Origin: an uncultured delta proteobacterium
GTDB taxonomy: Bacteria; Desulfobacterota; Binatia; UBA9968
NCBI GenBank assembly: GCA_963847445.1
Contig: CAWJZV010000007.1
Span: forward strand, 192,001-256,000
Reading direction: 5' to 3'
DNA length: 64,000 nt
The notes below the pieces were generated by a model. It was not told the DNA's origin, did no database searches, and was given only the letters and a program-made list of their open reading frames with translations. The position numbers and the translations under genes were made by a program. Within the stretch, counting starts at the first letter, position 1, and every line of letters starts with the position of its first letter. Below are positions 8,020-16,490 of this stretch, piece after piece.

Positions 8020-9000
8020 AGCCGCAAAGAACTTAGCGCAGCAGAGCCGCAACCAAATAGGAAAGAGTTTTCACCACGAAGTGCTTCATGAGCTTACGCT
8101 CGTCTACCGAGCATGAAAATACCGGAATCCCCCTCCCGGGGTTCATTCCTTAGATTCGTCATGCCGGCGCAGGCCGGCATCCAGGGGCGGTAGGGGAGAT
8201 GGATACCGGCCTGCGCCGGTATGACGGAACAGAGGGTCGTTATCGATGCGCAGATCATCGCTGCACGTGTATTTTCGAAGGAGGTCCTAGCGCGGCACAG
8301 CCGCAACCAAACGGGAAAGAGTTTTCACCACGAAGGTCCTAGCGCGGCAAGCCGCAACCGAAACTCGGAATATCTCTCGCAAAGACGCAAAGGCCGCAAA
8401 GGCCGGAAAATAACGGTGAATAAATGCTTCAAGATAATTCATCTCTCCCTCCGAACTTGGCGAGCTTTGCGTCTTTGCGAGAGTCAATCCCATGTTCCAG
8501 TATTCCCGGCACCGGAAAATTTGCGCAGACGGAGACAACTATTCAACATAGTAGTACGAAGGGTTCGGAAAGTTATTACTCCGAACTTCGTGCTCTTCGT
8601 GTCCTTCGTGGTGAGATTAAATTTCTTCATTGAGCACGGCAACTTAGGAGTACCGGTACGGAAAATTTGCGCAAGCTGCGCAAACAATCACGGATAGTAG
8701 CACAGGCTTTTCCCCAGACCCGGCCGGGGAAACGAGGTTCGCCTTTCGGCGAATAGCCGCAATCGAAACTCGGAATATCTCTCGCAAAGGCGCTAAGCTC
8801 GCAAAGGTGACGGGCGATGCCCGTCAACCCGAGGGAACACGTGGGATCTAAGAAAGATTTCTCCTTTAGGTCGAAATGACATCCCCTCCGAACTTGGCGT
8901 CTTTGCGCCCCTTCGACGTTGCTCAGGACATGCTTGGCGAGAGGAATTTCCGAATCCGAGAATCTTCGACTCCCGGAATTTTAAAGCCGTACGCTATGAC
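8020..9000. repeat. Nested cluster of non-autonomous elements, REP palindromes and CACGAAG/CGCAAAG inverted arrays
   Basis: Three TAGCGCRGCA(G)AGCCGCAACC left ends (8033, 8287, 8339), two GAAAATTTGCGCA...ATAGTAG right ends (8554, 8700), REP doublet 8158-8226, further palindromes about 8822-8935. Confidence 0.8.
8082..8283 (+). mobile_element. Element Y copy 1 (about 200 bp, hairpin left end, internal REP doublet)
   Basis: Follows CCACGAAG; TGCTTCATGAGCTTACGCTCG...CATGAAAAT ... CACGTGTATTTTCGAAGGAG; homologous to 14557-14760 and 16299-16490. Confidence 0.75.
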
Positions 9001-9362
9001 AAACATGTTGGTGTTAGTTTTTGGATAGCAATGCAACGAAAGCTAAGTTGAATTCTTCTAGTCGCGTCCCGATGCAGATCAGAGACCAACGCGCTGCCCT
9101 AAACTGGTTTGACATTATCGCGTTACCTTTGGTACAGGCCTGATGCAGTAAGCGCCTCACAGATGCGATCATGATCGACGAGGGGAAACGTCATGTTACC
9201 CCGAAGCGCACTTCCATCAGACTTGTTTGAAGCCAACCGCTGCGGCAATGTTTGGCGCCAGAGTGTGCTGGCAGATTTATTTGTGAAATCCGCCGTTAGC
9301 AGAATTCTTAGTTTCTCGTTGGCCGTGCCTCAGTGGCGATTTTTCTGAGAGGAGAACAATCT

Positions 9363-10046
9363 ATGCCTCCGAACACGGGCAACCGGCAGTTCGTCGACTC
9401 CGTAATCAGGGAGATCATCCAGCCGGGCATGGACCGGCTGATGGAGAGCCGCTACTTCTCCGACCTGCGAGCAGGCAAGCTCACCACCCGCCGGATCCAA
9501 GGCTTCGCCTTGCAGCACTACATCCACAATATGGGCATTCTCAAGGCGTTCGCCCTTGGGGCGACCCAACACGCCGCCGATGACCGGACGTTTACAGCGT
9601 ACGCCACCGCGATGGGCGAGGAACTGACCCATCCCAACATGTGCAAGACTTTGGGCTTCTCCTTGGGACTCACGGAGACCGACTTCGACAAGGCCGTGCC
9701 GGTGCGCGGCGCCCTGGTGCACACAGCGGTGTGCATTCACGGCATATTCCTGGTGTCCGTCGCTGAGATGCGTGCCATGGCGCTGTCCAACGAGACGATG
9801 GTGCAAGGTTACGCCACAGAGTTCGACGAATACCTGGCGAAGGAACCATACAACATGTCGGAGCAAGCCCGCGAGTTCTTCATCGTTCACAAGGGCGCCG
9901 ACGTCGAGCACACCGAGCGCTCGGCCGCCGCCATCGCGGCGAGCGCGACCAGCGACGAGGATCAGGAGAAGGTTCGGACGATCTGCCGGAACATGGCCGG
10001 GTTCAAGCTCGGCAAGTTCGACAGCATCTACGACGAATACGCCTGA
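9363..10046 (+). CDS. Heme-oxygenase-like diiron protein (PqqC/CADD/TenA superfamily)
   Basis: EELTH, NE and FFIVHKGADVEH (H-x3-D-x2-H) metal-ligand pattern; helical composition; GAGGAG RBS. Confidence 0.75.
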   Translation: MPPNTGNRQFVDSVIREIIQPGMDRLMESRYFSDLRAGKLTTRRIQGFALQHYIHNMGILKAFALGATQHAADDRTFTAYATAMGEELTHPNMCKTLGFSLGLTETDFDKAVPVRGALVHTAVCIHGIFLVSVAEMRAMALSNETMVQGYATEFDEYLAKEPYNMSEQAREFFIVHKGADVEHTERSAAAIAASATSDEDQEKVRTICRNMAGFKLGKFDSIYDEYA

Positions 10047-10349
10047 CTGTAGTACGGCTGCACAAAACCTTGCTTGCGGGATTTTGTTGCGCAAGCACGC
10101 AATCGTCAGTTGATCAGGTTGGCGGCACCACATCGGCGTGCGTCGATCGATTTAATCCTTATGTTTTCGTCGCTCAAGCGTCGTTCAGGTTAAGACCGTG
10201 ATCAGTGCATGCATGTTTGGTTCAGACCAACATAGTGTTAGCCGCACGCTTTGGCTTCTTTTTCTTGCAGATCGTCAGCTTTTTGTGGTTGAGTGGGAGC
10301 CTGCTGACCAAGCTGAATGGCAGCGCACAGCCGGTTGCAGCGGACCGTG

Positions 10350-11457
10350 ATGGATAAAGTCTTCGGCAAGATAATTTTCCGCCAGCTATTCGACGCCGCT
10401 TCGTCGACCTATACCTACGTGGTGGGCGACCCGCAAAGCCTGCAGGCCGTGATCATCGACACGGTCTTCGAGCAACACTTCCGCGATCGCGCGCTGCTGG
10501 AGGAACTCGGGTTGAAGCTGCTCGCCGTGCTCGACACCCACTGTCACGCCGACCACGTGACCGGCGCATGGTTGATGCAACAGGCCACCGGTTGCCGGAT
10601 CGGCATTTCGCGGCGCTACGGCGCTGCGGTGCAGGGGGCGGACCTGCGTTTCGATCATGGCGATCGGGTGGCCTTCGGGGAACGCTATCTGGAAGTGCGC
10701 GCCACGCCCGGCCACACCGACGGCTGCGTCACCTACGTGACCGACGACCACGGCATGGCGTTCACCGGCGACTGTCTGCTGATCCGCGGCGCCGGTCGCT
10801 GCGATTTCCAGCAGGGCAACGCCGGCACGCTGTACCGCTCGATCACCGAGCAGATCTTCAGCCTGCCGGACGACTCGCTGATTTTTCCCGGCCACGACTA
10901 CAGCGGCCGCACCATGTCTTCGGTGCGCGAGGAGCGGGCGCACAATCCGCGCATCGGCGGCCAATGCCGATGAGCGCGACTTTGTCGGCTTCATGGAAAA
11001 CCTCAACCTGCCGCATCCCAAGCAGATTGACGTTGCCGTGCCGGCGAATCTGCGGTGCGGCAAGCCGGAGAATGAAAAGGTGCCGCGGCCGGCGGACTGG
11101 GGGCCGGTGCGGCGGAGCTACGCCGGGCTGCTCGAGATCGATCCGGAGTGGGTCGCCGAACATCTCGCTGAAGTCCACGTCCTCGACGTGCGCCAACGCG
11201 AAGAACTGGAGGACAGGCTGGGCCACATCGCCACGGCTCAATGTGTCCCGTTAAACGAACTGAAAGACCGCCTGGGGGAAATTCCCAAGGACAAGCCGGT
11301 GATTCCGGTGTGCCACGCGGGCATGCGATCCGGCCAGGCCACGGTCATCCTCCGCGATGCCGGCTTTACTCGGGTAGCCAACCTGCATGGCGGCATGCTG
11401 TTGTGGCAGCAGATGGGGCTGCCGGTAGTGCGCGGCACAAGCCCTTTAACTAAGTAA
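10350..11457 (+). CDS. Persulfide dioxygenase (ETHE1-like MBL fold)-rhodanese fusion (frameshift near 10965)
   Basis: [44 protein letters not shown]-terminal LDVR...GHI...CHAGMRS...LHGGMLLW rhodanese domain. Confidence 0.9.
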
Positions 11458-15421: not shown

Positions 15422-15463
15422 GATCCCGCGCCCGGAGTGAGACAACGATTCGGGGGAAAATCT

Positions 15464-16225
15464 ATGGCCGACCGTAGAGCTTTCATTGGCTTGATGGCGT
15501 CGCTGGTGGTTCTGGCGTGGTGCGCGCTGTGGATCTGGGATCGCTCGCCCTATGGCCGCTACCTCGGCCACGGGCAAATCGGCGCCATCGGGGCCGATTC
15601 TCTGCTGCTGCCGATTACACTCTACCTGGTCGGTTGGACGCTGATGACAGTGGCCATGATGTTGCCGACGATCCTGCCGCTGCTGGAAATTTTCCGGCGC
15701 TTGACCGCGCGGCGCCAGGATCAGTTTCAGCTCTTGGCCCTGGTGATCGCGGGCTATCTGGGGGTATGGCTGGGCTTCGGTATTTTTGCTCACGGCGCCG
15801 ATTGGCTGCTGCACGAAATCGTCGAGCGCAGTTCCTGGCTTGAAGCCAACGCGTGGCTTATCGGCGCAGGCACGCTGCTCCTCGCCGGCGGCTTTCAGTT
15901 TAGCCGCTGGAAATACCGCTGCCTCGACAAGTGCCGCGCGCCGTTGAGTTTCGTCACCGAGTACTGGCGCGGCCGCCACGAGCGGCGCAATGCATTTTTG
16001 CTCGGACTTCATCACGGCCTGTTTTGCGTCGGCTGTTGCTGGGCGTTGATGCTCTTGATGTTCGCGGTCGGGGTCGGCAATGTCGCCTGGATGTTGGTGG
16101 TCGGGGCGGTGATGGCCGCGGAGAAGAACTTGCCGTGGGGCCGCAAACTGAGCGCGCCGGTGGGCGTCGCTCTGCTCGGCTGGGGCGGGATGATTTTACT
16201 CAATCGTTTGGTTCTTCTGGGTTGA
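15464..16225 (+). CDS. DUF2182 predicted metal-binding integral membrane protein
   Basis: WTLMTVAMMLP, KYRCLDKCRAP, GLFCVGCCWALM, EK; TM helices; follows DUF1326. Confidence 0.85.
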   Translation: MADRRAFIGLMASLVVLAWCALWIWDRSPYGRYLGHGQIGAIGADSLLLPITLYLVGWTLMTVAMMLPTILPLLEIFRRLTARRQDQFQLLALVIAGYLGVWLGFGIFAHGADWLLHEIVERSSWLEANAWLIGAGTLLLAGGFQFSRWKYRCLDKCRAPLSFVTEYWRGRHERRNAFLLGLHHGLFCVGCCWALMLLMFAVGVGNVAWMLVVGAVMAAEKNLPWGRKLSAPVGVALLGWGGMILLNRLVLLG

Positions 16226-16298
16226 CTGTGGCCACGAAGGACCGAAGCGCGCAAATTTCGGAGGTGTCGTCATCCGCAACCTTGGTGTCCTTCGCGCA

Positions 16299-16490
16299 CT
16301 CTTAGAAAATACACGTCAGGCGATGGTCTGCACACGAAGAGGCAGCGGTTCCGTCATACCCGCGAACGCGGGTATCCAGGCTAATCGGGCGCAGACCAAT
16401 CCTGGATTCCCGCGTGCGCGGGATGACGAGTCGAGCAAATGGCTATGCGATCCATCTTCATTGTCTGTCGTCGAGCGCAAGCTCATGACG
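16299..16490 (-). mobile_element. Element Y copy 3
   Basis: On the minus strand: CACCACGAAG|CGTCATGAGCTTGCGCTCG...AATGAAGAT ... REP doublet ... GACGTGTATTTTCTAAGAG. Confidence 0.7.

Follow-up and report, generated by a model that had tools for sequence, protein, structure and literature searches.

The 64,000-nucleotide (nt) window analysed here (G000:C7:192001-256000, where G000 is the genome of the window, an assembly of 7.19 Mb in 48 contigs that is 91.8% complete) comes from an uncultured bacterium of the Binatia and harbours three copies of a short repeated element, here termed Y, which is very likely a non-autonomous derivative of an IS110-family (bridge-recombinase) insertion sequence (IS), moved in trans and resembling a transposable element of the miniature inverted-repeat kind (MITE). 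The copies, at 8082-8283 (+), 14557-14760 (-) and 16299-16490 (-), had been delineated in a first-pass annotation of the window on the strength of common left, central and right blocks, and they were located and aligned as described; in the full-length alignment, which has a mean column identity of 74%, the left-end block, a central inverted pair of palindromes resembling repetitive extragenic palindromes (REPs) and the right-end block are common to all three. The identity of Y follows from a parent IS in related genomes whose ends and landing site agree with those of Y, which marks Y as a miniature derivative of an IS110-family IS. On either side of the core dinucleotide AG, Y has retained the donor half-sites; it lacks the recombinase gene and the guide-bearing stem-loops, while its interior is foreign DNA, consisting of a CGTC-type REP doublet with its flanks or, in a sister subfamily termed Y2, of a GTAG-type doublet (REPIN). 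Having neither gene nor bridge RNA, Y would have to be moved in trans by the parent.

The parent was located by a PF01548 scan of five Y-bearing relatives, in the same-genus genome G009. On contig C456 of that genome the order is CACCACGAAG, the left end of Y, 240 nt of non-coding DNA, an open reading frame (ORF) of 421 amino acids (aa), the sequence ...CCAAATTTTCGAAGGAG (also ...AAATTTTCGAAGGAG) and then GACACGAAGAGCACGAAG. The left end matches the Y left-end profile with an nhmmer E value of 5e-12, and the IS as a whole is 1.54 kb long, its first ~41 nt, its last ~13-15 nt and its target being those of Y. The product of the ORF (L130) carries PF01548 DEDD_Tnp_IS110 (1.3e-32, residues 17-164) and PF02371 Transposase_20 (2.7e-18, residues 263-348), that is, the N-terminal DEDD RuvC-like and C-terminal Transposase_20 domains of the IS110 family, and the junctions of the element are also those of this family, with no terminal inverted repeats, no duplication beyond the 2-nt core AG and a fixed orientation. 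Related parents with the same ends are present in G005 (78% identity) and G032 (83%, interrupted by a contig end), and 80 metagenomic parent loci, mostly of 76-89% transposase identity, were collected; among these parents 44 copies, 41 of them distinct, have a readable left end, and CCACGAAG stands 5' of 27 of the 41. The longer copy with the same ends enclosing a recombinase, which the first-pass annotation had proposed to look for, thus exists as an IS110-family element in G009, G005 and G032, and none was found in G000. One relic, at G000:C24:185459-185556, still has the left end together with the beginning of the bridge-RNA region.

The target of Y is fixed, as had been claimed. Among the 75 left ends of G000 with E<1e-3, the exact 10-mer CACCACGAAG stands directly 5' of 51, CCACGAAG of nine more and CGAAG of four more, and near variants of the target (CACCAGGAAG, CACCACGAAA and CACCACAGAG among them) precede 11, one of which is a misregistered match. 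The 10-mer occurs 303 times in G000 as against ~14 expected occurrences. It makes up the outer edge of a palindromic repeat, H, in which two or three CACGAAG heptamers with 2-nt spacers make up each arm of a GTTCGGA...TCCGAAC hairpin. About 66 H units possess both outer 10-mers, 31 of them intact and bare (75-99 nt) and 35 holding Y (275-349 nt). The junction between the outermost and the second heptamer is always the one used, in constant orientation: none of 53 full Y copies lies at an inner heptamer or has a further heptamer upstream, and 35 of the 53 have a heptamer within 18 nt downstream. A search of G000 for inverted pairs of the 10-mer 450-5000 nt apart yielded no candidate autonomous H or Y element. 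Neither terminal inverted repeats nor a target duplication were seen at the Y junctions, which agrees with the earlier description, and the only inverted match between the ends is a subterminal one of 6-8 nt (GAAAAT / ATTTTC).

The 240-nt left non-coding region of the parent folds into a structure whose guides indicate how this target may be chosen. It contains two stem-loops with 8-nt guides, one for the target and one for the donor. The left target guide (nt 114-121 in G009, first stem-loop) has the sequence of the final 8 nt of the left flank; the two are identical in 9 of 41 copies and agree at seven of eight letters in 25 more. The left donor guide (nt 185-192, second stem-loop) has the sequence of the final 8 nt of the right end, with full identity in 20 of 32 copies. 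Variants of the target guide track variant targets, namely CCACAGAG (L160 and L161), CCGCAGAG (L188), CCACAAAG (L197) and CGAAGGAG (L174 and L223), and variants of the donor guide match the right end exactly in the case of CAAAGGAG (four copies), CCAAGGAG (two) and CGAAAGAG (one); three right-end 8-mers of Y are likewise variants found in parents, CGAAGGAG in 23, CTAAGGAG in 11 and CCAAGGAG in two of 53 copies. At the level of sequence, several distinct guide variants that are matched in this way are real evidence of covariation. In the consensus fold of 27 left ends a 5' stem is accompanied by a closing stem and by two stem-loops that contain internal loops, and six of its 48 pairs show compensatory double changes. 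The left guides thus lie in loops and match target and donor, as is expected of an IS110 bridge RNA, and the left-end RNA of the parent is a predicted bridge RNA with the core AG; the first-pass annotation had named IS110, with its 2-nt core, as one candidate enzyme family, and the parent with the ends of Y, the core AG and the guide covariation bear it out. It had also suggested that the CTTC next to the left junction could be a guide, an idea that had to be abandoned, since this motif is present in only 6 of 53 full copies and the guide sits in the putative bridge RNA of the parent, which has been lost from Y. A 7-mer search within Y for segments matching target or donor returned only the subterminal GAAAATA/TATTTTC, indicating that Y itself carries no guide, and an analysis of covariation between left-end and right-end columns of Y returned only GAAAAT/ATTTTC and CATG/CATG with no convincing compensatory change. 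In one sub-lineage of parents (L174, L223 and L213) the target guide equals the family's own right end, CGAAGGAG; L174 and L223 lie directly behind the right end of another element, and are thus self-targeting tandem builders, and L213 lies behind the near variant CAAAGGAG.

In total, 271 of 328 letters agree between target guide and left flank and 244 of 256 between donor guide and right end, agreement that 0 of 10,000 permutations reached in either case and that supports the bridge-RNA reading. The parent sequences are related, so that the permutation figures overstate independence, and this relatedness is the first of several points that speak against the interpretation of Y as a bridge-recombinase derivative. 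The other 12 of the 32 parents have one mismatch between guide and right end (7/8). The 8-nt left guides are situated on the 3' sides of their loops, and right guides could not be identified in the parent left-end RNA. Most parents carry the guide ACACGAAG, for which the inner heptamers (GACACGAAG) would be a closer match than the outer one. Not one of 53 Y copies is found there, so that a further determinant is missing from the model. Rfam, searched with window positions 7500-17000, the parent locus and three G000 loci, gave no match for the left-end RNA or for Y, and a simple sigma-70 scan detected no promoter at a natural right-end/left-end junction. Such junctions occur in tandem at C18:9188/9189 and in L163, L164, L166, L168 and L174; they were seen as chromosomal tandems only, with no circular junction observed in public runs, in which contigs break at the repeat. 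Finally, no parent transposase was detected in G000 by tblastn at E<=1e-3, and a separate search at E<=1e-20 gave 0 matches, in an assembly that is incomplete and in which repeats often remain unassembled; trans-mobilisation in this genome is presumed. The PF01548 proteins of G000 amount to one unrelated IS110 copy, broken by an IS3-type insertion and without Y ends, and its single IS91 element (PF04986) also lacks Y ends; a close parent was not found in the Y-bearing G004 and G014 either.

Comparison of filled and empty sites supports insertion of Y as a discrete unit. In a search of 30 related genomes with window positions 13800-17200 as the query, the locus was found in several same-genus genomes, and junctions could be compared with the empty sites that the first-pass annotation had called for. 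The site of copy 2 is empty in G004, where the flanks abut exactly (...GTCCTCGAC/CTTCGCGCAGG, as compared to ...GTCCGTGAC/Y/CTTCGTGGAGG in the window) and the left half of the target adjoins the other flank directly, with no duplication; the site is empty in G014 too. Copy 3 is present in G004 (85% identity) and absent from G014, where the H palindrome is intact. Full-length matches to Y were obtained in G003, G004, G009, G014 and G018, and outside the family the matches in these 30 genomes were of REP length only, while a 64-nt left-end query hit 40 places in G014 and eight in G004. Beyond the genus, the distribution of Y rests on the metagenomic parents and on tandem copies next to them. On contig C9 of G004 (L006), opposite window position ~14449, an extra ~220 nt that is not Y lies upstream of the copy 2 site.

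These boundaries bear on the proposal that Y is a mosaic intergenic repeat comparable to bacterial interspersed mosaic elements (BIME) or neisserial intergenic mosaic elements (NIME), spread by recombination or gene conversion and not by transposition. The intergenic regions are indeed mosaics of several modules that all abut CACCACGAAG, and the Y subfamilies look recombinant, their left, REP and right blocks being mixed, as such a process would produce. Filled and empty sites nevertheless have exact boundaries at copy 2, a site without a module array, the outermost heptamer is occupied at an unvarying position and in one orientation (0 of 53 elsewhere), and a parent IS with the same ends and target is in existence, so that we regard this explanation as highly improbable. 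Recombination between copies probably shuffles the interiors of Y, without explaining the insertions.

The Y family is large. When the three-copy profile was run against the whole of G000 it returned 305 matches, which merged into 161 loci, 62 with both ends, 85 with the central REP doublet only, 10 with the left end only and four with the right end only. A genome-wide search with separate end profiles, which the first-pass annotation had proposed, gave 83 left-end and 64 right-end matches that form 63 pairs, 62 of them 179-267 nt long and one 982 nt long. No long form of Y was found within G000, and the sole 982-nt pair is a Y copy with a group II intron. This copy (L235, G000:C11:10-991) holds an ORF-less intron of ~740 nt directly after the first REP hairpin (RF00029, 55.6 bits with a gathering threshold of 40; D1-D4 model, 31.9 bits), and a near-identical Y without the intron stands at the start of contig C5, in what looks like a strain-level difference of presence and absence. 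The ~62 full copies are gene-free and carry REP doublets, in keeping with the earlier view of Y as a repeat-targeting, non-autonomous element. Near-identical stretches, flanks included, occur on two contigs each (G000:C1:30804 and C37:21115; C34:292820 and window ~43815), which, together with a contamination estimate of 6.9%, points to a redundant or strain-mixed assembly, and the Y copy counts may accordingly be inflated by a few. In public runs, in which contigs end at the Y borders (best share of words 0.38), depth over the REP part exceeds the depth of the flanks by a factor of hundreds.

What is constant across Y copies is confined to the first ~41 nt (TG..TCATGAKCTTACGCWCG...ATGAAAAT) and the last ~15-20 nt (...TATTTTCKAAGGAG), and the interior falls into a few mosaic subfamilies in which different left, REP and right blocks are combined. 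Nearest-neighbour identity among 53 copies reaches a maximum of 98.4%, with a median of 92.7%, and the youngest subfamily is 96-98% alike. Y has no sequence in common with the parent beyond its first ~41 and last ~15 nt, 21 of 22 blastn matches falling within the first 50-100 nt of the IS. It could be supposed that each Y goes back to a full-length IS110 insertion of its own, from which the interior was later lost, with no multiplication as a miniature, and the relic on contig C24, which retains the left end along with the initial stretch of the bridge-RNA region, shows that decay of parents took place in the G000 lineage. Independent deletions cannot, however, yield more than 50 copies with the same foreign, non-IS interior in few subfamilies, nor interiors that have nothing in common with the parent, and this origin of Y is thus hardly credible; the same copies indicate that Y spread as a MITE does and not by repeated decay. 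Y has the features of a MITE-like element, namely the ends of an autonomous element, no coding capacity, multiple copies and the same target, and it does not have the terminal inverted repeats and flanking target duplication of a MITE in the strict sense, for which reason it is termed MITE-like, as is MITEPpu9.

In the window copies the cargo consists of a CGTC-tagged REP doublet (CGTC, an 8-9 bp stem starting with AT, and a CCA tail), inverted head-to-head, and some Y copies of ~243 nt contain a third, nested REP. Y2 retains the Y ends and target and carries as cargo a long palindrome of the GTAG-tagged REP type, a REPIN. REPINs and the REP-associated tyrosine transposases (RAYTs) were reportedly described by Bertels and Rainey in 2011, and G000 contains a classical REPtron at C39:511-1250 (L004), with a RAYT of 175 aa (625-1152; NF047646, 190.8 bits with a cut-off of 80) between GTAG-tagged REP doublets. 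The doublets on both sides of this RAYT are the same repeat as the Y2 cargo. About 62 of the ~147 REP-doublet loci of G000 lie inside Y, a share compatible with the spread of REP doublets as passengers and also with REPINs inserting into Y.

With such cargo, Y might be taken for a single-strand DNA element of the IS200/IS605 or REPIN type, moved by an HUH Y1 transposase or RAYT via hairpins. IS200/IS605 elements and hairpin-ended miniatures insert 3' of a fixed short sequence, with no duplication and no inverted ends, and Y does the same, its interior is composed of REP doublets, the G000 RAYT is flanked by doublets identical in type to the Y2 cargo, and two longer Y1 proteins are also encoded in G000. 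Y ends were nonetheless found to bound none of the four Y1 loci of G000 and none of 30 Y1 loci from relatives, and the IS200/IS605 alternative raised in the first-pass annotation does not hold up on this count. In addition, one and the same Y frame, with its ends and target unchanged, houses two REP families that are unrelated to each other, which implies that it is not a REP-specific enzyme that defines the ends; a TnpB (PF07282) was not found in G000; the left-end hairpin of Y is without covariation; and orientation relative to GC skew is not significant (75 left ends, Mann-Whitney p = 0.08). Unlike IS200/IS605 miniatures, for which a cognate Y1 element and subterminal hairpins that resemble each other at the two ends are diagnostic, Y has no matching hairpins at its two ends, no linked Y1 transposase and a parent with a DEDD recombinase, and the complete IS110-family parent with the same ends explains everything that the Y1 model would have to explain, leaving the latter very improbable. 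Y also differs from a REPIN in having the ends and target of an IS110 element and in being present or absent at orthologous sites as a whole 200-nt unit and not as a doublet.

A course of events for the origin and movement of Y as an IS110 derivative can be proposed on the model of IS621. A resident parent would supply both the recombinase and the bridge RNA in trans, one loop of the RNA pairing with the joined right-end/left-end donor of Y and the other with the target, (C)CACGA-AG followed by GACAC..., at the junction of the outermost and second heptamers, so that the target would be chosen by the guide of the parent; recombination at the AG core would then paste Y in one orientation and with no duplication. 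The left end of Y probably retains the 5' stem-loop region of the parent RNA, as modelled. By analogy, movement would proceed through a circular intermediate and in trans, with the 41-nt left end needed in cis. With the bridge RNA provided in trans, IS621 needs no more than a 22-bp donor, according to the available passages of Durrant et al. (2024, PMC11208160), and retention of the ~41-nt left end in all Y subfamilies, Y2 included, suggests a larger natural requirement in cis. As no parent transposase was found in G000, its Y copies are now probably stranded, unless a parent resides in the unassembled 8% of the genome.

The closest relative in print is MITEPpu9, a MITE-like element of ISPpu9 (IS110 family) in Pseudomonas putida KT2440, which, in the available sections of its description (PMC12288879), carries the small RNA gene ssr9 and is present in eight copies, five of them directly downstream of an ISPpu9 gene. 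As far as that account goes, MITEPpu9 and Y are alike in that the IS recombinase is thought to be used in trans, in their insertion into palindromic repeats and in the lack of classical inverted ends, and they differ in that Y has a REP doublet as cargo, ~62 full copies per genome and a mobility inferred from comparative data only, and persists where a parent was not found (G000, and also G004 and G014). The suggestion of the first-pass annotation that Y was possibly undescribed consequently stands for the Y family itself and falls for the kind of element, since an IS110-linked MITE-like element had been published. What is novel in Y with respect to MITEPpu9 is a high-copy, REP-carrying element that is without gene and bridge RNA and survives without its parent. 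Among full-text literature on IS110 miniature inverted-repeat elements and bridge RNA the MITEPpu9 paper stood alone; the titles and opening lines of abstracts on IS110, MITEs and non-autonomous elements described no such family, and the passages found of a preprint on IS110 size variation deal with compact and cargo-bearing forms and hold no miniature derivatives.

The parent itself invites comparison with IS621 and the bridge recombinases of the IS110 family, reportedly also the subject of Hiraizumi et al. (2024). The bridge RNA of IS621, in the same passages of PMC11208160, has a 5' stem-loop followed by one loop that binds the target and one that binds the donor; each pairing takes in the core, and the left guides are on the 5' sides of the loops. 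The parent resembles IS621, so far as those passages show, in its recombinase with DEDD and Transposase_20 domains, its long non-coding left end, its 5' stem-loop with two guide loops, its 2-nt core, the absence of duplication and a repeated palindrome as the natural target. Unlike IS621, it has the core AG and not CT, left guides on the 3' sides of the loops, and as its target the edge of a heptamer-array palindrome and not an enterobacterial REP. The cargo has parallels of its own: in the accessible part of Di Nocera et al. (2013, PMC3733652), CGTC REPs are stated to lack a dedicated transposase and some REP dimers to be regularly embedded in larger repeated units. The window copies of Y likewise carry an inverted CGTC-tagged doublet, the Y2 cargo being GTAG-tagged, and no RAYT flanked by a CGTC-type doublet was found in G000, in agreement with that part of the work.

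Within the window, copy 1 (+ strand) is 202 nt long; its left end, common with the parent IS, occupies 8082-8122, the arms of its CGTC-type REP doublet 8148-8183 and 8200-8235, and its right end, which terminates in TATTTTCGAAGGAG, ~8264-8283. The left half of its target together with the core, CACCACGAAG, lies at 8072-8081 (+) and equals the left-target guide of the predicted parent bridge RNA, its final two bases being AG, the crossover core shared with the right end of the element. Downstream, at 8284-8335 (+), follows a 52-nt repeat module, GTCCTAGCGCGG...TTTTCACCACGAAG, the last 10 nt of which (8326-8335) form an unoccupied target, an empty site within the window 250 nt from the occupied one; 8034-8081 and 8288-8335 are direct repeats of 92% identity. 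A module (GTCC)TAGCGCGGCACAGCCGCAACC...GGGAAAGAGTTTTCACCACGAAG recurs at 8034-8081, 8288-8335, 8350-8402 and 8755-8807, terminating in the same 10-mer and thereby regenerating the target, and with Y and H it forms short tandem mosaics; the 10-mer is also adjoined by other modules, …GCTCAATGAGAAAAATCCATCT and …GGTTTACTGTGAAGATGTTTT. Copy 2 (- strand, 204 nt) has its REP doublet within 14608-14684 and the left half of its target, CCACGAAG on the minus strand, at 14761-14768. Copy 3 (- strand, 192 nt), with its REP doublet within 16347-16423, is the most diverged of the three and has a right end shortened to ...TTTTCTAAGAG. The left half of its target, CACCACGAAG on the minus strand at 16491-16500, is the outermost heptamer in the right arm of the host H palindrome, and the remainder of that palindrome, at 16232-16298, contains CACGAAG-type heptamers with 2-nt spacers in both hairpin arms, so that the copy is placed between the outermost and the second heptamer. 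Other H sites of the window are 8562-8601 and 24408-24447. A long imperfect palindrome at 7838-7975, GCAGGCTGCTGAAAAAGACCCA ... TGGATCTTTTTGAGCAGCCTGC, just downstream of a major facilitator superfamily (MFS) transporter gene, is probably yet another intergenic repeat family. The genes within 11610-16225 encode a 915-aa protein with a Tle1-like phospholipase domain of type VI secretion systems (1.8e-71), then a DUF1326 protein and then a PpoB2 copper-chaperone-like membrane protein, the latter two forming a gene pair flanked by Y copies 2 and 3.

Bridge recombinases are under development as programmable tools for genome editing, and nature has so far provided little evidence of their requirements in cis. 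The Y family constitutes a natural experiment on minimal donors, with dozens of copies that have kept a left end of ~41 nt and a right end of ~15 nt, while the parent family displays natural retargeting, its guide variants matching variant targets that include the right end of the family itself, and offers a loop layout other than that of IS621. For the Binatia, an uncultured soil lineage, the results present a high-copy intergenic repeat whose source, an RNA-guided IS, seems to have disappeared from the genome since, and annotation of such orphan repeats may consequently succeed only via relatives. We tentatively suggest a nesting on three levels, in which a bridge-RNA IS lands in a heptamer-array palindrome, a miniature with neither gene nor RNA outnumbers that parent by ~60 to 0 in G000, and REP doublets ride inside the miniature, an arrangement that is possible and for which we claim no great likelihood. 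The ~41-nt left end, retained in all subfamilies, may in addition be a cis-acting stem-loop bound by the recombinase, which would provide a natural minimal donor for bridge-recombinase engineering. With the Y family comes a route, open to testing, along which CGTC-type REP doublets could spread, a question left open in the accessible part of Di Nocera et al. (PMC3733652), and under such nesting hitch-hiking in IS110-type miniatures would be a real means of their spread.

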